Origin: a virus
Lineage: Duplodnaviria > Caudoviricetes
Virus record (IMG/VR): IMGVR_UViG_3300027815_000019
Span: 1 to 26,910 of that record
Direction: 5' to 3' (one strand)
DNA: 26,910 nt
Positions 469 to 16,346 of this stretch are shown piece after piece. The notes beneath the pieces were generated by a model that was given only the letters and a program-made list of their open reading frames with translations, had not been told where the DNA came from and made no database searches. Each line of letters opens with the position of its first letter. Within the stretch, counting starts at the first letter, position 1. The position numbers and the translations under genes are program-made.

Positions 469-950
469 TTCGCCACCCACGCAGCGGCCGCCGCGACGAA
501 CGCCGCCCGCTTGCCGTCCGTGACTTCGCTCGCCGACTTCACGCCGAACTCGTCACGCAGCTTGCGGCATTGATCGACGCCGTGCTTGCTGGCGACATCG
601 CGCAGCGCGGCACGGATGTCGTCAGCGGTCAGCGGCTTCGCATCGGCGGGCTTGTCCGCGAGCTTGTTGACCGCGTCCTCGAAGTCCGCTTGCTCCGGTG
701 CGACTTCGCCGGCCTTCTTTGCCGTCTGGTCACGCTTCTTGCCTTCCGCCGGCTTTTCCGGGGGCAGCACTTCGACGTTCACGCCGGCGGCATGCTCGAC
801 AGCGGCATCCGATGTTTCGTTCGGCGGCTCGACTATATTCCCCTGCGCAGGCCGCGCACTGTTCGCCATACCGATAGCGAGCTTCAGCACTTCCCGCATG
901 ACGGACCCGGCATCTGGACCGCTGATCGTGATGGTAATGTTGTTCGACAT
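465..950 (-). CDS. Conserved phage protein with a helical C-terminal domain, of the type usually found upstream of DUF2800
   Basis: RBS AAGGA before ATG 950 (MSNNITITISG). C-terminus LTADDIRAALRDVASKHGVDQCRKLRDEFGVKSASEV. Gene context. Confidence 0.75.
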   Translation of the reverse strand: MSNNITITISGPDAGSVMREVLKLAIGMANSARPAQGNIVEPPNETSDAAVEHAAGVNVEVLPPEKPAEGKKRDQTAKKAGEVAPEQADFEDAVNKLADKPADAKPLTADDIRAALRDVASKHGVDQCRKLRDEFGVKSASEVTDGKRAAFVAAAAAWVAK

Positions 951-969
951 TGTTCGTTCCTTTCTACAG

Positions 970-2472
970 TTAGACCAAAAGTTCATTCAAGGCACTGGTT
1001 GAGGTCGATCGCTTCCGCAGCGGCGCGGATGAACTCGATCGCCGCTTCGCGGTTGATCGCGTTGCCGTAGGCGCGCAGTCGTCCCACGCGGTTTCGATCC
1101 CCATAAGCCAGCGGGAATGTCCCGCTCTCAACTGGCCGCGCTTTTCCGTCGGTGCAGGGAATCCAGCCGGCGTCTCGCCAGAAGCCGTTGACCGGGCCAG
1201 CAACGCAAAGTCCTGAAGGTTCGAGCCGTGGCGATCCGGCCCATGCGCCCTCTTCGCTTGGCCGCCGCGCTCCGCGTCGTGAACTGTCGGCGTCGGCCAG
1301 TTCGCGAGTTGCGCCACCAGCGACAGCCCCGTGGGCTTCGTGTTGTCGATCTTTATTCCCTTCGCTCGCGCTCGATCGAAACGATGTTGCTGTTCTTCTG
1401 GCGTCCCGCCCGGCTCGTGCGCCGCCGGGGTAGGCCAGCTCGCGAGCGTCGCTACTTGATTGAGACTCACTGTCGCTTTGCTGCCGTCCGGACGCCGACC
1501 CGTGGCGCTCGCATCTTTCCCCATCTGCGAGCCGTCCGCGTTGCCCTTCGTCGGGGTTGGCCAACTCGCCAAGCAGGCCGCTTGATTCAAGTCCTGCGGC
1601 CCGCCCTTGCGCTCGATCTCGCGCAAGGAGCCTTCCAGCGTACGAACATTCTTCTCGTCGTCCGATGCTCGCGCTGTAGGCCAAGAACCACAATCGCTGC
1701 CGGATGTGCGGCGCCCCGACGCCCGCAGCCGGTAGATCGACCGGCCCGAGGGTGTAACCAATTCCTTCCAAGTCAGCTTGAACAACGTGGAACCAAGGGC
1801 TGCCGTCCGGCGGCGCAAATTCTCTGCTAACTGCTTCGATAATTCGTTCGATCTCTGCCTCCGCTTGGCCAGCACGCCAAGCGCCAACTCCACCATCTTC
1901 TGCTCGCCCCAATCCCCCATTGCGCTGTTTACTGCGTGGCAAACCACGCGAATATTGGAGTGGAGGTACCCCGCTGACGATTCGATCCTGTCCAGTGATG
2001 GACTGTCCCATGTCCGACCGCCCTCCAAGTTGAACGGAAGTCCGGTCACTTCGCACGTCCCGTGGTTTATGCGCTGCTGAATGTTCAAAACGTAACTGTC
2101 GAGATTGAAAGGCACCCCCTTCTTCGTTGCTCGCTCCCTCGCGTGCCGGATCAAATCCTTCGCTCTGTTGTTCTTCCGATACTTCATTTGATACGCACGA
2201 TCCTTTTCCAGCACTACCAACGACCGCGGACGACGCGACTTGTTCACCGAAGATAACTCCGGGCCGGCACTCGGCGATAAGCCGGTAGAACTCCGGCCAA
2301 AGATGTCTCTCGTCGGCTTCGCCGCCGCGCTTCCCAGCCGCCGAGAAGGGCTGGCAGGGACACGATCCGGTCCATACTTCACGCTCATCGGGCCATCCGG
2401 CACCGCGGAGAGCTGCGGACCAGATGCCGATGCCGGCGAAGAAGTGACATTGCGTGTAACCTTTGAGGTCAT
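970..2472 (-). CDS. Overprinted methyltransferase beta polypeptide with an embedded HNH-like domain (true start uncertain: 2472, or ~2214/2187)
   Basis: 500-codon open frame overlapping the alpha gene. It contains CEVTGLPF..SPSLDRIESSAGY..NIRVVCHAVN (HNH-like), four WPT(P) repeats and GQLRAGHSRWLMG (motif IX-like). Confidence 0.75.
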   Translation of the reverse strand: MTSKVTRNVTSSPASASGPQLSAVPDGPMSVKYGPDRVPASPSRRLGSAAAKPTRDIFGRSSTGLSPSAGPELSSVNKSRRPRSLVVLEKDRAYQMKYRKNNRAKDLIRHARERATKKGVPFNLDSYVLNIQQRINHGTCEVTGLPFNLEGGRTWDSPSLDRIESSAGYLHSNIRVVCHAVNSAMGDWGEQKMVELALGVLAKRRQRSNELSKQLAENLRRRTAALGSTLFKLTWKELVTPSGRSIYRLRASGRRTSGSDCGSWPTARASDDEKNVRTLEGSLREIERKGGPQDLNQAACLASWPTPTKGNADGSQMGKDASATGRRPDGSKATVSLNQVATLASWPTPAAHEPGGTPEEQQHRFDRARAKGIKIDNTKPTGLSLVAQLANWPTPTVHDAERGGQAKRAHGPDRHGSNLQDFALLARSTASGETPAGFPAPTEKRGQLRAGHSRWLMGIETAWDDCAPTATRSTAKRRSSSSAPLRKRSTSTSALNELLV

Positions 2473-2593
2473 CTGCTTGAACGTCCTTTATGCTTCGATC
2501 GTCAACATCGCCCGGAGCAATGTGCCCCTTCGCGATAAGCTCCCGTAGCCACGCAACGCAGTACGGGTCGATTTCGTTGTAGTACGCACTCAC
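983..2593 (-). CDS. C5 DNA cytosine methyltransferase, alpha polypeptide (motifs I-VIII and X)
   Basis: GTG start overlapping the upstream stop. Motifs FFAGIG (I), GSCPCQPFS (IV), GEQV (VI), PHIRQRLW (VIII) and RLRAYGNAI (X). No motif IX is recognisable in this frame. Confidence 0.9.
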   Translation of the reverse strand: MSAYYNEIDPYCVAWLRELIAKGHIAPGDVDDRSIKDVQADDLKGYTQCHFFAGIGIWSAALRGAGWPDEREVWTGSCPCQPFSAAGKRGGEADERHLWPEFYRLIAECRPGVIFGEQVASSAVVGSAGKGSCVSNEVSEEQQSEGFDPAREGASNEEGGAFQSRQLRFEHSAAHKPRDVRSDRTSVQLGGRSDMGQSITGQDRIVSGVPPLQYSRGLPRSKQRNGGLGRAEDGGVGAWRAGQAEAEIERIIEAVSREFAPPDGSPWFHVVQADLEGIGYTLGPVDLPAAGVGAPHIRQRLWFLAYSASIGRREECSYAGRLLARDRAQGRAAGLESSGLLGELANPDEGQRGRLADGERCERHGSASGRQQSDSESQSSSDARELAYPGGARAGRDARRTATSFRSSASEGNKDRQHEAHGAVAGGATRELADADSSRRGARRPSEEGAWAGSPRLEPSGLCVAGPVNGFWRDAGWIPCTDGKARPVESGTFPLAYGDRNRVGRLRAYGNAINREAAIEFIRAAAEAIDLNQCLE

Positions 2594-2832
2594 AGCATAA
2601 ATTCGCTGACCGGCGGATACGGCCGCTGCATCACGCCGCGCAGCGAAACCTCGACTTCGTAAGCCGCCATCGCGCAGCCTGCGAGCGCCTTCATCTCCGC
2701 TATGTTCAGCGACCGTATCGGCCGCGCCGTGTTTATCGTCCCCTTCAGCCAGGCGACCATTTCGCGGGCTACGTGCTCGGTTGTCTTGTCCAGCCACTCG
2801 TTGTCAGGAGACGCTTGCTTTTTGCTGGTCAC
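2590..2832 (-). CDS. Hypothetical protein (80 aa)
   Basis: GTG start with GGGG upstream. Its stop overlaps the methyltransferase start (GTGA). Confidence 0.65.
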   Translation of the reverse strand: MTSKKQASPDNEWLDKTTEHVAREMVAWLKGTINTARPIRSLNIAEMKALAGCAMAAYEVEVSLRGVMQRPYPPVSEFML

Positions 2833-2846
2833 AACAAACCCCAACT

Positions 2847-3683
2847 TTATACAATGCCAAAACGCCGCAACCGATCGAAGAACTCCCCCTGCGCACGGAG
2901 CGGCGCCCACCGGATGATCTTCTCCGGCAACGGGGCGGCGTGCTCATAGCGAGCGCCCCACGGATATGGGCCAGGCCCCATCAAGTCGCGTTTCTCGGTC
3001 ATCAGCACCCGCATGTCGGCGGTATGAACGCCCTCCTTGATGTCCGTTGGCATCGGATATGTCAGCCCCGCTTTGGTGAAGATGGCGCGGTCGAGAGTTT
3101 CTTTAAGCGCCCGGATCGCCTCTTTGACGCCGCCACCCACAAGATGTGCTTCCATACCCCCGACAGCCGGCTGTGTGATGTCGCCGATGTACGCCTCGTG
3201 CGCATCGTGCAGCAGTCCGTATGCGCGCCAATAACCCGGCAGCATATCCGCGACGATGCACGAGTGCTGAGCGACGCTGTACGCCCCTGCGGCGCCGGCG
3301 AAGCGGTTGCTGAAAGACAAGTGACTGTTGATATCGTACCACCGGATGTCATCTGGCGACGTGCCAACCAGCGGGACACAATTGCCGGCGTATGTCTGCA
3401 TCCACGGACGGCCACCGAACGGCGCGGTCACTTCATCATGCCGTCGAGGGGGGATTCTTCCATTGCCGCAGAAGCCGTCTTTTTCGTGCTCGTGGATGGC
3501 ACCCACAGCTTGCGCAGCAGGAACAGCGGGAACCCGTATTCGTTCTCCACGTTGATGTCGACGCGCGGCGGCGTTAAGACGGGCGAGGAGGGTAGTTTCC
3601 GTTTCGGATTCATTCGTCATAGTCCCCCGTTCGTGGTCGTCGAATAGCAGATCGTAGATGGCTTGCAGTTCTTCGCCGGTCAT
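2847..3683 (-). CDS. HD-domain phosphohydrolase (YfbR/YfdR-like 5'-deoxynucleotidase); alternative start at GTG 3431
   Basis: Motifs RFAG..YSVAQHS, LLHDAHEAYIGD and ADMRVLMTEKRDL. ATG 3683 overlaps the upstream stop (TGATG). Confidence 0.85.
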   Translation of the reverse strand: MTGEELQAIYDLLFDDHERGTMTNESETETTLLARLNAAARRHQRGERIRVPAVPAAQAVGAIHEHEKDGFCGNGRIPPRRHDEVTAPFGGRPWMQTYAGNCVPLVGTSPDDIRWYDINSHLSFSNRFAGAAGAYSVAQHSCIVADMLPGYWRAYGLLHDAHEAYIGDITQPAVGGMEAHLVGGGVKEAIRALKETLDRAIFTKAGLTYPMPTDIKEGVHTADMRVLMTEKRDLMGPGPYPWGARYEHAAPLPEKIIRWAPLRAQGEFFDRLRRFGIV

Positions 3684-4693
3684 CAGAAATCTCCCTCGGC
3701 CACTTGCGCGCATGGCATGCCGATCTCGCGCCACATCTTCACAACCTCGGCGATTTCTGCTGCGCGCTTCTGTGCCTTGTCCCGCTTGGCGAGCAAGTCT
3801 GTGAATAACGACTCGTTCACTTTAAGATATGACTTGAGTACGTCTTCCTTTAATTTTTCTGGGTTATTCATTCTCGATAGTAAGCCGTCGTTGGTTTGCA
3901 GGTAACGGCAGAAATCTCGCAGTTCAGCATTGCGTTGAAGTTGCTTGGCGACTCCTTCGAAGCTGGTTCGTAATTTCTTGTCTTTGAGTATCAATTCCTT
4001 TTCTTTGGCGATCACTTCTTCAAGTTCTTCCTGTGTATTGATCTCGACATCCTTCCCCTCTGACTTTAGGTGGACGGAGTGCTTGGCATCAAAGAACCCG
4101 TTTTTTGCAAGGCTGTCTGCAATTTGCCCAGCATTGTAGTAAACAAACATTCCTTTCTTGAAGAAAGTGGAGCCATCCAGCAATTCGTTATAAGTACGGA
4201 TATATGTTTCTATCGCATCCTTCAGACCCTTTGTTCCAAGAGCGGTCATGACCTTCTCGTTGAACACCTTGTCGTACTCAATATCGGAAAAAATGGAGTC
4301 CTTTTGTTTTTGAACTTCATCCCGAACGCGCCCTAGCGCGACGAAAACATCGTCCCCGCTCGTAAACGCGGACGAAATTTCCGTTTCGAAATCGACGTTT
4401 GATTTTGATTGCTCGCTGATTGCAGCAAGGAGGGCATCCTTCGCGTCATTCGTAGGGCTCAAAAGACTCGTTAGTTCTTTTCTCAATTCAGAATTTACGA
4501 GGAGGACTGACGTTTGCCCACTTGGACCCAAGTCTGGATCGTAGGGCACGACCACAAGTACGCGCGGTCCCTCAACCGAATCACCCTTCTCATCTGTGAT
4601 GTTCCTCGTGGTCGCGTGCGCAGCAAAAATTCGATCTTTTGATTTTTCATTCTTGGAAGCATCTAGAAATGTTTGCGCAAACGATGATTTCAT
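3683..4693 (-). CDS. Chimeric ORF: internal fragment of a bacterial RloC/PrrC-like ABC ATPase fused to the last ~20 aa of the phage HAD phosphatase
   Basis: Starts at MKSSFAQTF (tail of a degenerate Walker A) and continues as a Lys/Glu-rich coiled coil, with no ABC signature or Walker B. Ends in VVKMWREIGMPCAQVAEGDF, a typical PNK-phosphatase C-terminus. GC is visibly lower than in the flanks. Confidence 0.7.
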   Translation of the reverse strand: MKSSFAQTFLDASKNEKSKDRIFAAHATTRNITDEKGDSVEGPRVLVVVPYDPDLGPSGQTSVLLVNSELRKELTSLLSPTNDAKDALLAAISEQSKSNVDFETEISSAFTSGDDVFVALGRVRDEVQKQKDSIFSDIEYDKVFNEKVMTALGTKGLKDAIETYIRTYNELLDGSTFFKKGMFVYYNAGQIADSLAKNGFFDAKHSVHLKSEGKDVEINTQEELEEVIAKEKELILKDKKLRTSFEGVAKQLQRNAELRDFCRYLQTNDGLLSRMNNPEKLKEDVLKSYLKVNESLFTDLLAKRDKAQKRAAEIAEVVKMWREIGMPCAQVAEGDF

Positions 4694-4995
4694 TACAGCC
4701 TACCACTGGTAAGGGGGGTTGTGAAGTGTAACGGTGCCCCTCCGGGCAGGGCGTGGCGGCGCAACCAGTCCTCGGTTGCCTCTCGGCACTGGTCACTGCG
4801 GCCGGAGATGTAGATGATCCTGGCGCCAGCCAGCGCCACGTCAATTGCAAGATTGATCATGTGCTGGATCGGGGCGTCATCCGGGCAGGCAGCGAAGAAG
4901 CCGTCCCAGTCCTTCGGGGTCTGCTGAATTAACGGCAAGCGATGCGAAAGGTCCGCGAGCGTCCCGTCGATGTCAAAAATGTAGCATCGGCTCAT
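4693..4995 (-). pseudogene. N-terminal part of a T4 PseT-like HAD 3'-phosphatase, interrupted by an insertion
   Basis: FDIDGTLAD (HAD motif I) and ISGR (motif II) are present. The motif III/IV segment (K...DD) is missing, and the C-terminal remnant lies at 3683-3745. Confidence 0.8.
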
Positions 4996-10096: not shown

Positions 10097-10780
10097 TCAA
10101 GCCGGAATGAATGCGTGCGCGCTGTTCAACTTGTACGGCTTATCCGCTTCGATTCCATTTTCGCCGGCGTAGGCAATGGCGTGGCGATAGCGCGAGCCGT
10201 CGAAAAATTTAAGCATCAAGGTGCCGCAGGCGCCAGCCGTCGCGGTGCCGCGGATGCCAGCCGTCGCGGTGCCGTTGTCGCCAGCCGTCGCGGTGCCGCC
10301 GTAACCAGCCGTCGCGGTGCCGTAGCTGCCAGCTCTCGCGGTGCCGTTGTCGCCAGCCGTCGCGGTGCCGTAGGGGCCAGCCATCGCGGTGCCGTAGGGG
10401 CCAGCCATCGCGGTGCCGTCGTCGTCAGCCGTCGCTATTAAAAACGGAATCGCAAGATTGCGCGGCGCGGCTGCCGCGAGGAGTGCAGCGGCCTTATCAC
10501 GCGCCCCTTCGAACAAGAGCGTACATTCAGGGAATTTATGCTTTCCGCCGAGGTCAATAGCAGCGGAACCTGTATATTCGACAACCTGGAAAACAGAATC
10601 AGCGTGGAGATTGAGCAAAGATAAGTCGCCTTGACCCCATGGCAGCCCGTGGAGTCCGTTGCCACACAATGCGGCCGGTTGCCAGTCCGGCGCCTTGACG
10701 ATGGAGCCAATTTTACGGGGCCACTTGAATCCGTTGTAGCTCTTACGGTCTTTGTCAACCGTGCGCAGATAAAGTGTCAT
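10097..10780 (-). CDS. DUF7666-like phage protein with 8-aa ATAGxxGT repeats
   Basis: SYNGFKWP...CGNGLHG N-terminal domain, nine octapeptide repeats, C-terminal GENGIEADKPYKL. RBS GGGAG. Confidence 0.75.
   Translation of the reverse strand: MTLYLRTVDKDRKSYNGFKWPRKIGSIVKAPDWQPAALCGNGLHGLPWGQGDLSLLNLHADSVFQVVEYTGSAAIDLGGKHKFPECTLLFEGARDKAAALLAAAAPRNLAIPFLIATADDDGTAMAGPYGTAMAGPYGTATAGDNGTARAGSYGTATAGYGGTATAGDNGTATAGIRGTATAGACGTLMLKFFDGSRYRHAIAYAGENGIEADKPYKLNSAHAFIPA
10220..10435. repeat. 24-bp tandem repeat, nine units (coding)
   Basis: Units GCCAGCCGTCGCGGTGCC-N6 encoding ATAGxxGT. Confidence 0.9.
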
Positions 10781-10794
10781 GGCTGTTAGACTCC

Positions 10795-10878
10795 CTATGA
10801 TGTGGCGAGGACGGTTAAGGCGATCATGTACGCGGCGAAGGCGAGCCAGCGGGCGGCGTGGTACAGGGCTGTTGTCAT
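10795..10878 (-). CDS. Small membrane peptide (27 aa)
   Basis: MTTALYHAARWLAFAAYMIALTVLATS, with an ATGA overlap with the upstream gene. Confidence 0.5.
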   Translation of the reverse strand: MTTALYHAARWLAFAAYMIALTVLATS

Positions 10879-11105
10879 GCGCGCGTACCTCTGATTGGCC
10901 CGTTGTAGATTTCGTGATGTGAGCCTGCGCCGTTGGTGTGCAGCGCAAGGCAAATGCGTGCCATGTCCACTCCGTCCTTTTCGTAAAGATCGACGCACAC
11001 CGCGCCTTGCCATGATGCCGCTGTTATCTGCAAACCGGATGATTTGCCGCCGAGTCGTGATGCTTCGCCGCGTGCGCCTTGTATAGTTCCGCGAAAGTGA
11101 GCCAT
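10875..11105 (-). CDS. Hypothetical phage protein (76 aa)
   Basis: MAHFRGTIQGARGEASRLG. RBS AAGGA lies within the repeated element. Confidence 0.7.
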   Translation of the reverse strand: MAHFRGTIQGARGEASRLGGKSSGLQITAASWQGAVCVDLYEKDGVDMARICLALHTNGAGSHHEIYNGPIRGTRA

Positions 11106-11163: not shown

Positions 11164-12360
11164 TTAAATGCGCTTCGGCATCAGGACAAAACTGACGCCC
11201 CTATCCGCATCGCCGGCACCACGGATCAGCGCGGGCGAACCGGAATCGGCAAGCATGAAAGCGACCGAGTCGGATTCGACGTTGGCCAGGATGCTGCGGA
11301 GGTATTCGGAGTTGAATCCGATATCCATCGGGTCGCTGGCGTAGTCGCACGCCAGATCGGCCGATGCTGAACCGGTATCAGGGTCCATGCTGCAGAGGCG
11401 CAACCGGGAGTCCGTCATGCTCAGTTTGACGGATCGGCCGCGCTCCGGTGACAGCATCATCACTTGCTTGATGCTGGTATCCAGCGACTCGACAGCGATT
11501 GTCATTCGCTTGTCATTGCCGGACGGAACTACGCGCGCATAGTTGGGAAATGTGCCATTAATCAGCTTGGATGTGATGACGATATCGCCGATCACGAATT
11601 GTGACAGGCCGTCGCCGAGTCTGATCGTGACAGTTTCCGGCGCGCCCTTGCCGCGCGCCGCGTAGATCAGTTCCGCAACGGTTTGGCGGGGAACGATGAC
11701 GCCCGGCATTCCGGCGGAGCTCTCCGGAGCGGCGATATCGGCTATCGCCATTTTGTGGCCATCGGTCGCCACGAAGCGCAGTGTGCCGGGAGCGCCGTTG
11801 TGCATAAATACGCCATTGAGATAGTACCGGGTTTCCTCCGTCGAGATAGCGAACTCAGTCCGTTTCAAGGCGCGGACAAAATCAGCCGTGCGGAGAGTGA
11901 ATTCGTGCGCCCACGAGCCGGCGACAATCTGCGGGAAATCAACTGTTGGTAGAGTGTTCAGCATGACCTTGAGTCCGCTGAAGTCGAGAACCGCCATGCT
12001 GGCACCGGCCGTGATCGTCACGGTATCGCCCGCCTTGGCTTCCTTCAAGACCTTGGCCAGCACGTGAGCCGGAACCGTCACGGCGAAATTGGGCGCCACG
12101 GCGCCGGCCACCGGACAGGAAATCTCCCGGTCCAGATCGCTGCAGCGCAGGATCAATCCGGCGCCCGTTGCCTGTAGCAAGACATTGGCCAAGATCGGAA
12201 TCGACTTGCGATCCGCCGCCGCGCGGGCCACGGCATTGACCGCGGCGGAAAGTAGCGCGCGGCCCACAACAGCGGCCGCCGGGGCCGTTGGTAATGGCGG
12301 AGCGGCGGCAAGATCGCTTGAGTATGGGTGTGAAGCGGTGCTAAGGTCTGGTTTTGTCAT
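11164..12360 (-). CDS. dnaN: DNA polymerase III beta subunit (sliding clamp), phage-encoded
   Basis: IPILANVLL, SDLD, STEETRYYLNG, ATDGH, SKLINGTFPNY, IGFNSEYL and C-terminal VLMPKR. Confidence 0.92.
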   Translation of the reverse strand: MTKPDLSTASHPYSSDLAAAPPLPTAPAAAVVGRALLSAAVNAVARAAADRKSIPILANVLLQATGAGLILRCSDLDREISCPVAGAVAPNFAVTVPAHVLAKVLKEAKAGDTVTITAGASMAVLDFSGLKVMLNTLPTVDFPQIVAGSWAHEFTLRTADFVRALKRTEFAISTEETRYYLNGVFMHNGAPGTLRFVATDGHKMAIADIAAPESSAGMPGVIVPRQTVAELIYAARGKGAPETVTIRLGDGLSQFVIGDIVITSKLINGTFPNYARVVPSGNDKRMTIAVESLDTSIKQVMMLSPERGRSVKLSMTDSRLRLCSMDPDTGSASADLACDYASDPMDIGFNSEYLRSILANVESDSVAFMLADSGSPALIRGAGDADRGVSFVLMPKRI

Positions 12361-14861: not shown

Positions 14862-16346
14862 TTGGCACAGCCGCCGCCCTATAATCGTCAGTTCAACTTC
14901 CAGAATCAGCAGGCGTTGACTCCGGCGACGCCCCTGCTGGCCGACAAAGTCGATCTGGAATACAACTCGATCAAGATCACGATCGACCAGCTACTGGCGA
15001 AGCTCGCGCTCCTTCAGGCCGACGACGGCACACTGGCGCCCTACATCGTCGGAACCGCACAACTGAGCCCGACGCTCAGCCTTGGCTTCACGCCGCCGGT
15101 CGCGTGGTCCACCGGCGTAAACTTTTCCGTCAACGCTACGGTGTTCTTCGCGGCGAAGCTGTATATTTGCAAGATCGCGCACCTGTCCGGCTCGTTCACC
15201 GACGACCTGGCTGCTGTGCGCTGGTCGCTGCTCGCGGACTTCGTCGCTGCGGTGAACAGCGCTATCAACATCGCGTTTTCGCCGGCTGGAACGATCGTCG
15301 CCACCACCGTCCAGGCAGCGATCACCGAACTCGACAACGAAACGCAGACCGCGCTTACCGCGCGAGCGCCGGCCGCTGGTGAATATATCGTAGCGGCCGC
15401 CCATGCAGACTTGACTGCCGAGCGTGTCGCTACGAACACCCCAACGATCTCGTGGGACGTAAGCGTAGCGGCGCAGGCCAAGGCGAACATCATTGACGCG
15501 AGCGTGACGGCTGCGAAGTTGCAGGACGCCGCGGTGTCGGCGGTGAAGCTTGGCACCGATGCCGTAACGACCGCGAAGATTCTTGACGCGAACGTCACGG
15601 CGGCGAAGCTCGCGGCCGATGCGGTGACGACCGCGAAGATTCTCGATGCGAACGTCACGGCGGCGAAGCTCGCGGCCGATGCGGTGACGACCGCGAAGAT
15701 TCTTGACGCGAACGTCACGGCGGCGAAGCTCGCGGCGGACGCAAAGACACTACCTACTCGTCAAGTTTTATTGAGTGGAGGGGCAGCAACATATACAACC
15801 CCGGCGGGCTGCCGGCAGCTTCGTGTTCGCATGGTTGGCAGCGGTGGCGGCGGCGGCGCTGCGATCACCAATAATGGCGCTAATGGTGCCGCTACTATTT
15901 TCAATGCCATAAACGCTAATCCCGGTTCCGGTGGCGGCTCCGGCGGCGCAAGCGGCGCAAGCGGCGGCGCCGGCGGCTCCGGCGGCGGTGGTGCTGCGTC
16001 TTTTAGGATGGCAGGCAATCCGGGGCCAGCTTGGGCCAACGCCGCTGCGGCTGGTGTCAGCGGCTTCGGCGGGTCCAGCGTGTTTGGTGGTTCCGGCGGC
16101 TCGGTCCGCAGCTCTGCGGGCGCGGCGGCGGTGGCAAACTCCGGTTCTGGTGGTGGTGGCGGGGGAGGCGGCGACAACCAGCTTGGCGCCGGCGGGGGAG
16201 CGGGAGAATATGTCGAGTTAATCATCAACAGTCCCGCGGCAACATACATTTACACCGTGCCCGCTGGCGGCGCCGGTGGCGCGGCGGGTGTCCAGGCGGG
16301 AGGTAACGGCGGGAGCGGGATAATTATCATTGATGAGTTTTACTGA
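14862..16346 (+). CDS. Tail fibre-like virion protein with VTxAK(L/I) repeats and a glycine-rich C-terminal domain
   Basis: TTG start after AAGGT. 10-aa repeats VTTAKILDAN/VTAAKLAADA. Gly-rich domain GGGGGG...GGSGIIIIDEFY. Confidence 0.75.
   Translation: MAQPPPYNRQFNFQNQQALTPATPLLADKVDLEYNSIKITIDQLLAKLALLQADDGTLAPYIVGTAQLSPTLSLGFTPPVAWSTGVNFSVNATVFFAAKLYICKIAHLSGSFTDDLAAVRWSLLADFVAAVNSAINIAFSPAGTIVATTVQAAITELDNETQTALTARAPAAGEYIVAAAHADLTAERVATNTPTISWDVSVAAQAKANIIDASVTAAKLQDAAVSAVKLGTDAVTTAKILDANVTAAKLAADAVTTAKILDANVTAAKLAADAVTTAKILDANVTAAKLAADAKTLPTRQVLLSGGAATYTTPAGCRQLRVRMVGSGGGGGAAITNNGANGAATIFNAINANPGSGGGSGGASGASGGAGGSGGGGAASFRMAGNPGPAWANAAAAGVSGFGGSSVFGGSGGSVRSSAGAAAVANSGSGGGGGGGGDNQLGAGGGAGEYVELIINSPAATYIYTVPAGGAGGAAGVQAGGNGGSGIIIIDEFY
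15541..15742. repeat. 60-bp tandem repeat (~3.3 units, coding)
   Basis: Near-identical units start at 15541, 15601 and 15661, with a partial unit at 15721. Confidence 0.9.

Follow-up and report, generated by a model that had tools for sequence, protein, structure and literature searches.

A methyltransferase gene read in two frames

The window, meaning the whole 26,910-nt stretch of viral DNA analysed here, is a contig of phage-like character that has genes for a terminase, a primase-helicase and a clamp. On its minus strand lies a C5 DNA methyltransferase gene that encodes two chains, alpha and beta, in two frames. The alpha motif names below follow the established scheme for C5 methyltransferases.

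2593-983, minus strand: alpha ORF, C5 DNA methyltransferase catalytic chain, 536 aa, reading through the insert
2443-2426, minus strand: alpha motif I
2365-2342, minus strand: alpha motif IV
2248-2237, minus strand: alpha motif VI (GEQV)
1711-1694, minus strand: alpha motif VIII (PHIRQR)
1078-1055, minus strand: alpha motif X
2472-970, minus strand: beta ORF, +1 frame relative to alpha, 500 aa, matching phrog_1008 (E 1.2e-22)
1137-1099, minus strand: motif IX-like block of beta, GQL..HSRWLMG

Alpha starts at a GTG that overlaps the TGA of the upstream gene, and it matches PF00145 (E 4.9e-12) and phrog_363 (E 7.6e-71). Candidate beta starts are the in-frame ATGs at 2472, 2388 and 2187. Beta comprises, in order, an N-terminal part of about 80 aa, an HNH domain, a helix of the pattern S-x2-L-x3-L-x3-L, four WPT(P/A) repeats and the motif IX-like block; Pfam and NCBIfam searches of beta and of the insert returned no match. 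The third frame across alpha/beta contains many stops, and in all 76 insert-free alleles beta runs without a stop for 75 or more codons upstream of GEQV. The gene has the M.EcoHK31I-type layout, in which alpha carries motifs I-VIII plus X and the second chain lies in another frame inside alpha. At the expected place of motif IX, beta has a conserved family block, GQLNP..SRWLMG.P..W, which by its resemblance may be motif IX; the window copy deviates from it (LRAGH, GIE) and reads LRAGHSRWLMGIE against the consensus LNPAHSRWLMG.P. A search of the coding strand over 900-3000 found no promoter-like site. A clamp-binding-like QL.LF at the beta start was considered and rejected (present in 3 of 76 insert-free alleles and 8 of 49 carriers).

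Elsewhere on the minus strand, a PNKP-type HAD phosphatase gene (3683-4995) looks interrupted: its N-part lies at 4693-4995, and its C-part ends a 336-aa ORF (3683-4693) whose first ~314 aa are encoded at low GC (45%) and share 39-47% identity with plasmid-borne bacterial genes for 'phage infection protein'/AAA ATPase. At 11164-12360 (minus strand) the phage encodes a homologue of the DNA polymerase III beta clamp (TIGR00663, E 2.4e-63). Tandem peptide repeats of the G-T-A-T-A-G type lie at 10097-10948 in an ORF that weakly matches YdhT, and tandem AADAVTTAKILDANVTAAKL repeats at about 15400-15750 in ORF 14862-16346.

An insert that is open in both frames

1811-2230 (approximate), minus strand: insert, 420 nt, 140 codons relative to insert-free alleles

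Motifs VI and VIII lie 179 aa apart in the window. The motif was located in 77 of the closest viral relatives, and 74 of these have a spacing of 39 aa, so the insert amounts to 140 codons; the other three comprise one truncated locus, one regular-expression artefact and one carrier (L045). The first-pass annotation had placed about 140 extra codons at 1805-2220. The comparison bears this out with limits at about 2230-1811, and the segment is not of equal length in all homologues. Read in the alpha frame, the insert is a Gly/Ser/Arg/Glu-rich spacer between motifs VI and VII; read in the beta frame, it matches phrog_3322 'endonuclease' (E 6.5e-25). Both frames are open, as had been described, and alpha reads through. 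Synonymous recoding of the window beta core predicted 4.07 alpha stops (P(0) = 0.011), and the two-frame openness of the insert is more than chance.

Identical DNA was present in Logan contigs of two runs at ~16x; these contigs are not independent support, since they are possibly the source of the window. The reads of the two runs contained no insert-free version of the same allele, and a distant allele, 483 nt shorter, lay on another contig of the same runs. The earlier statement that no intron or intein signature is visible held: an Rfam search over 800-3000 gave a best match of E 7.5, outside the insert, with no group I/II intron ribozyme core, and Pfam gave no intein match on alpha, whose peptide in the insert has no intein-type ends. 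The nuclease fills nearly the whole insert and so leaves no room for a ribozyme.

The beta-frame domain resembles PacI

1855-2214, minus strand: PacI-like beta-beta-alpha (HNH) domain in the beta frame, from AF2, VIA, Foldseek and profile alignment
Minus strand, beta numbering: predicted active site D161 (1992-1990), R162, Y169 (1968-1966), N173, R175, N182 (1929-1927)

An AF2 model built from 110 sequences reached a pLDDT of 95.8; an earlier model, built from only 12, could not be relied on around the active site and was set aside. Among 48,161 chains, the top VIA match of the model was PacI 3m7k (rmsd 4.0, 106 aligned, 17% identity) with a modest Z of 8.1, the tool warning that Z under 8 is common, and further HNH nucleases came below PacI in the list. 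Foldseek matched 3ldy (TM 0.60, E 0.044) and returned no match at E 0.001 or better. Insert-family profiles retrieved PacI from the PDB at E 0.052 and 0.032; a PDB search with the single sequence missed it. The HNH fold proposed for the beta frame was thus recovered by the structural comparison.

At 16-17% identity, PacI D92, R93, Y100, N104, R106 and N113 aligned without gaps to beta D161, R162, Y169, N173, R175 and N182. The aligned PacI stretch D92-N113 has only one tyrosine, Y100, which we take to be the catalytic one. Among the 120 proteins listed by whole-beta similarity, 109 had the domain; Tyr, Arg and both Asn were kept in 109/109 of these and Asp in 108/109, the residue after Asp being R in 91 and Q in 18. 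PacI lacks the active-site histidine, uses a loop tyrosine instead and binds its metal by Asp and Asn, according to the consulted parts of two sources (PMC5714182, PMC4081073). The first-pass annotation had noted DR at the histidine position and concluded that the domain may only bind DNA. This is not supported: since the residues align to those of PacI and are near-invariant, the DR site is better read as PacI-type than as dead. The fold closest to PacI and the Asp/Asn metal ligands with a loop Tyr in place of His are present, and the two Cys4 sites of the PacI group are lacking: the N-terminal Cys4 finger is absent from the window copy (it occurs in at least 37 of the 109 homologues, in longer carriers), and the second zinc site is reduced to C..C-H. 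A homodimer model, which may recall PacI, scored 0.61 against 0.00 for the best control, with contacts agreeing to at least 85% and pLDDT of at least 84; 20 of 30 solved dimers attain the mark applied, as does 1 of 23 monomers. The nuclease domain is predicted to dimerize.

Fused, nested and free-standing relatives

In the series of ARRANGEMENTS, 65 of 110 rows are fused into beta as in the window. Another 12 are nested with a stop of their own (3 after motif VI, 5 after VII and 4 after VIII), the flanking motif being repeated. Outside the gene, 5 lie just after it and 1 just before it, 7 form a group behind a DNA-polymerase-like gene and 20 lie elsewhere, some by terminase-like or primase-like genes (neighbor genes were named by eye). 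Sites beside core phage genes are typical of homing genes, according to the consulted part of one source (PMC10448857). In all 12 unfused nested copies, the nuclease ends in a stop of its own, and a new start of beta follows about one codon away or less, at the conserved helix; in the four motif-VII cases that were scored, the upstream beta frame has acquired stops. From these 12 copies it follows that fusion is not required in the family, either for the nuclease ORF or for beta. The predominance of the fused form (65 of 77 nested) fits long residence.

Several single loci add detail. In L174 and L253, the beta restarted right after the nuclease stop begins MQLSIFD and MQPTLFD, starts that in our estimation resemble a clamp-binding motif. 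Five fused carriers (L084, L045, L181, L206 and L224) have a beta-frame stop at most 24 codons upstream of GEQV, and because of it their beta must start at or inside the insert. In L243, a free-standing nuclease gene follows the methylase and at its 3' end runs into a second, degenerate copy of motif X (GIGNAIVAELAA vs GYGNAIVPQLAA), a doubling just like that of nested sites. In L192, the nuclease gene directly precedes the methylase, and over the final ~45 codons of the nuclease gene the alpha frame has no stop, possibly an intermediate towards nesting. L269 (1117-2455) is the cultured Klebsiella phage SBP (OP114730), which has a two-frame methylase followed by a nuclease of the insert family; its beta ORF (1226-1900) is unannotated. 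None of the 33 matching cultured-phage records and neither of the 2 plasmids covered 80% of the insert-plus-junction query, and GTDB yielded 2 loci.

A doubled segment and changed wobble bases

2231-2272, minus strand: upstream copy of a 14-codon segment, alpha C-R-P..F-G-E-Q-V kept, beta leucines lost
1811-1852, minus strand: downstream copy of the 14-codon segment, beta helix S-NE-L-SKQ-L-AEN-L kept, alpha GEQV lost

In insert-free alleles, codons -8 to +5 around GEQV are used in both frames. We compared profiles of 47 carriers with those of 76 insert-free alleles. The upstream copy of the carriers scored 0.99-1.0 for alpha P, G, E, Q and V and 0.40, 0.28, 0.24 and 0.06 for beta S/L/L/L, and the downstream copy 0.74, 0.68, 0.60 and 0.78 for beta and 0.02-0.34 for alpha. 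The two window copies are identical at only 14 of 42 nt and the doubled segment escaped a search for direct repeats, so the duplication is visible only at the level of family profiles. The proposal of a duplicated flank divided in function therefore stands for the family profiles; as a likeness between the two window copies, it does not.

The alpha wobble base at codons -5, -1 and +3 was T in 100%, 97% and 100% of 69 insert-free alleles and in 30%, 23% and 6% of 53 carriers. Judged by these frequencies, alpha wobble bases are pinned by the overlap in insert-free alleles and are largely altered in carriers. The change can be accounted for by relaxation or shared ancestry; we infer that it may also be an escape from self-cleavage.

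Selection keeps the alpha frame open through the insert

Protein and motif scans gave 115 distinct loci with the nuclease motif. Six were left out of the trees and stop counts: L191, L221, L248, L267 and L186, which are frameshifted or cut short, and L250, whose peptide is the same as the window's. The nested copies in L191, L221, L248 and L267 are apparently frameshifted, by decay or assembly error.

In 49 loci, motifs VI and VIII were both detected around the nuclease, in its -1 frame; no alpha stop lay between the motifs, as against 4-21 stops in the third frame. The full core was present in 106 loci, 75 nested and 31 free-standing. The alpha frame was stop-free in 75/75 nested cores (about 2.6 such cores expected from synonymous recoding) compared to 0/31 free-standing cores; 64 fused loci had been classed without looking at alpha and 11 unfused loci after seeing it, and the fused class alone was stop-free in 64/64. 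T-ending codons before AA, AG or GA, which create alpha stops, numbered 0/1669 in nested copies vs 249/738 in free-standing ones. Identity among carriers in the insert was 0.29 in the alpha frame, 0.32 in the third frame and 0.52 in beta. Alpha stops in the insert are selected against. Since the frame is stop-free and its peptide unconserved, the insert in alpha is in effect a sequence-free spacer that must be translated, and the purged stops, together with the lack of an Rfam match in the insert, argue against splicing or ribosomal bypass.

Nuclease similarity does not follow the alpha flanks

2249-2296, minus strand: candidate co-conversion tract, 16 codons upstream of GEQV, which tracks the nuclease and not the distal gene

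Flanks and nuclease were compared by Mantel tests in 26 fused loci with all parts. Alpha-N and alpha-C were correlated (rho 0.54, p 0.001), whereas the nuclease followed neither alpha flank (rho 0.045 and 0.012), unchanged with GC controlled. A flank tree was built from 26 fused loci, 5 others and 34 insert-free alleles drawn at random from 67 de-duplicated ones (173 columns, quick search). On this tree, which has short segments, long branches and an insert-free set chosen as closest to the window alpha, carrier monophyly was rejected (AU p 0.003), 11 changes were needed for 26 carriers, and the rows nearest to the window were insert-free. Over 47 loci, the 16-codon tract tracked the nuclease (Mantel rho 0.26, p 0.002, the best of 8 segments), and the distal 5' part of the gene did not (rho -0.14). 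A flank that tracks the nuclease is the pattern expected from co-conversion, going by the consulted part of one source (PMC2988022); the signal could instead reflect co-evolution of the fused beta N-terminus.

The nearest nuclease relative of the window among the loci is only ~70% identical, so no recent jump was caught, and a search for very close carrier/non-carrier pairs found none (best alpha-N identity 0.89). A nuclease tree from a quick search, with 110 rows and 110 columns, would fit one origin of the fused copies or several. Judged by these comparisons, the insert behaves as mobile, and ordinary phage recombination can also explain the patchy carrier distribution.

Interpretation and alternatives

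We consider it probable that the insert is a selfish, non-splicing gene for a homing endonuclease of PacI type, an HNH enzyme that uses tyrosine, lodged in a two-frame methyltransferase. It would never be spliced out, serving in one frame as a domain of the beta chain and in the other as a stop-free spacer that alpha would tolerate as a surface loop. The nuclease would be translated from the beta start as a nuclease-beta fusion, which would answer how a hidden HNH is made. When two phage genomes share one cell, the insert-free allele would be cut at or just upstream of motif VI, and repair from the carrier would copy the insert together with ~50 bases upstream. Doubling of the segment would leave motif VI to alpha and the helix to beta and would likely have removed the carrier's own target. 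The first option of the first-pass annotation, an invader that does without splicing because both frames through it are open, is supported.

A stronger version is conceivable, and we advance it tentatively: the homing nuclease may exploit the dual-coding gene itself, with locked wobbles as an inescapable target, the doubling un-overlapping the genes and the beta start being borrowed. If this were true, the target around motif VI could not escape by synonymous change (T at Val+3), the invader's own copy would be freed to mutate to immunity, and the splicing-free route of invasion would be open to overlapping genes only.

The insert might alternatively be part of a domesticated one-locus modification/restriction (or nicking) enzyme, its beta-borne nuclease cutting unmethylated methylase sites in host or competitor DNA and alpha/beta methylation protecting the phage. 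We think this unlikely. The commonest nested form is indeed the beta fusion, the active site is conserved and PacI itself is a restriction enzyme, but nuclease similarity follows neither methylase flank, the insert occurs in only 1 of the 77 close alpha relatives, and members of the same family sit where no methylase is in view, next to polymerase-like and terminase-like genes. Moreover, all 12 unfused nested relatives have their own nuclease stop and a beta restart, and 3 of them fall among fused copies on the nuclease tree, a quick one. The domesticated option of the first-pass annotation is thus weakened by the patchy distribution, by these 12 relatives and by the copies outside the gene. 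We also find it rather improbable that the insert is a nuclease cassette, active now or formerly, which phage recombination moves around passively and which today has no drive of its own in the gene. Such shuffling would leave unexplained why catalytic residues are near-invariant across copies ~40-70% identical, why the nuclease arrived repeatedly by four conserved motifs of one gene and why a short upstream tract follows it, even though phage genomes do recombine within genes, 5 of the 115 motif loci seem to be frameshifted or truncated, and the closest carrier/non-carrier pair is no nearer than 0.89 in alpha-N.

That the domain is a catalytically dead DNA-binding or dimerizing module, kept as a help to the methylase, strikes us as very improbable. 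The absence of a canonical His, the R/Q variation after Asp, the reduced zinc ligands and the annotation of family relatives as 'Srd/sigma decoy' in PHROGs would suit it; the Asp, Tyr and both Asn nevertheless match PacI and are kept in 108-109/109, and unfused and free-standing relatives keep the residues too, though they were found by a motif containing them. Homing endonucleases within conserved motifs are usually carried by introns or inteins, and the segment might accordingly be removed at the RNA or protein level (by an unrecognized intron, ribosomal bypass or an intein), the open alpha frame being incidental. We give this almost no credence: the best Rfam match lies outside the insert, a ribozyme has no room, purging of alpha stops would be needless if the RNA were removed, and the alpha-frame peptide is unconserved and without intein-type ends.

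The preferred reading, a selfish homing gene that does not splice, would carry a kind of selfish element so far scarcely described, with one computational paper and two brief mentions in the literature covered, over to a large and separate family; the stop counts supply selection evidence that translation of the host frame does run through the insert. The reading also suggests phage homing relatives for PacI, a restriction enzyme that lacks a methylase. The locus would also be a natural case of three functions on one DNA stretch, with an overlap undone by duplication. Annotation pipelines record such loci as a single hypothetical protein or a single methylase.

Comparison with known systems

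R.PacI (3LDY/3M7K, His-Me finger group 20) shares with the insert domain the fold and the D-R-x6-Y...N-x-R...N pattern, and its homodimer has a predicted counterpart here. PacI differs in that it stands alone as a restriction enzyme, has two zinc sites and is without a cognate methylase, as given in the consulted parts of three sources (PMC5714182, PMC4081073, PMC3384342). Its N-terminal Cys4 finger is shared by the longer carriers and not by the window copy.

The consulted part of a paper on M.EcoHK31I describes an alpha chain with motifs I-VIII plus X and a beta chain with motif IX, beta being encoded in the other frame inside alpha and having a partly dispensable N-terminus; that part places the TRD in alpha and describes no nuclease insert, whereas the window host has one (PMC2836561). 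In the window, the TRD is more likely in beta, because beta has the four WPT(P/A) repeats and alpha is of low complexity between VIII and X.

Intron-less homing endonucleases that split a host gene are Aeh1 mobE in nrdA and T4 mobA in the topoisomerase gene. In the consulted part of the source, they resemble the insert in entering a critical region without splicing and in the co-conversion of flanks, and their coupled stop-start junctions are like those after the unfused nested relatives (PMC2988022). According to the same part, they split the host protein in two (PMC2988022), whereas the window alpha stays one chain by read-through.

The closest precedents are the hidden out-of-frame HNH genes of ShiLan and Pacc40, which are read through, unspliced, by mycobacteriophage methylases and were described by computation only (Arsenault, Gosselin, Gogarten 2025, PMC11855218). 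Like the window insert, they place an HNH out of frame in a phage methylase whose frame is stop-free, with no intron or intein, and both show a disjunct distribution and free-standing relatives by related methylases; the host frame of ShiLan/Pacc40, predicted to be disordered, is a further likeness (PMC11855218). In those elements, an 11-residue terminal similarity links the insert start and the downstream flank (PMC11855218), and a short similarity of this kind is shared by the present family. Their hosts, ShiLan gp65 and Pacc40 gp60, are named 'DNA methylase' (N-4 for Pacc40), have no motif match to the window alpha and lack a long second frame, whereas the window host codes in two frames. 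Their HNH occupies the +2 frame and has a start and a stop of its own, and the window nuclease lies in +1, fused into beta; a start and stop of its own inside the insert is absent from the window, and an own stop is present in the 12 nested relatives. The ShiLan HNH did not match the insert-family profile, and that of Pacc40 shares only a DRID..Y..N stretch (E 0.003 among 13 sequences). In its workings the window element is like that of ShiLan, but by sequence it represents a separate family.

The first-pass annotation knew of no description of this architecture. As regards a read-through HNH, this no longer applies, since one has been published (PMC11855218); as regards the host it holds, those methylases being different and single-frame, and a literature search covering few subscription journals found no description of the two-frame fused form. 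The published study left the translation of the hidden HNH open (PMC11855218), and fusion to a second host protein is a possible answer to it. What the present locus and its family add to these systems is the two-frame host, the fusion to its second subunit, the selection tests, the un-overlapping by duplication and the PacI-type active site.
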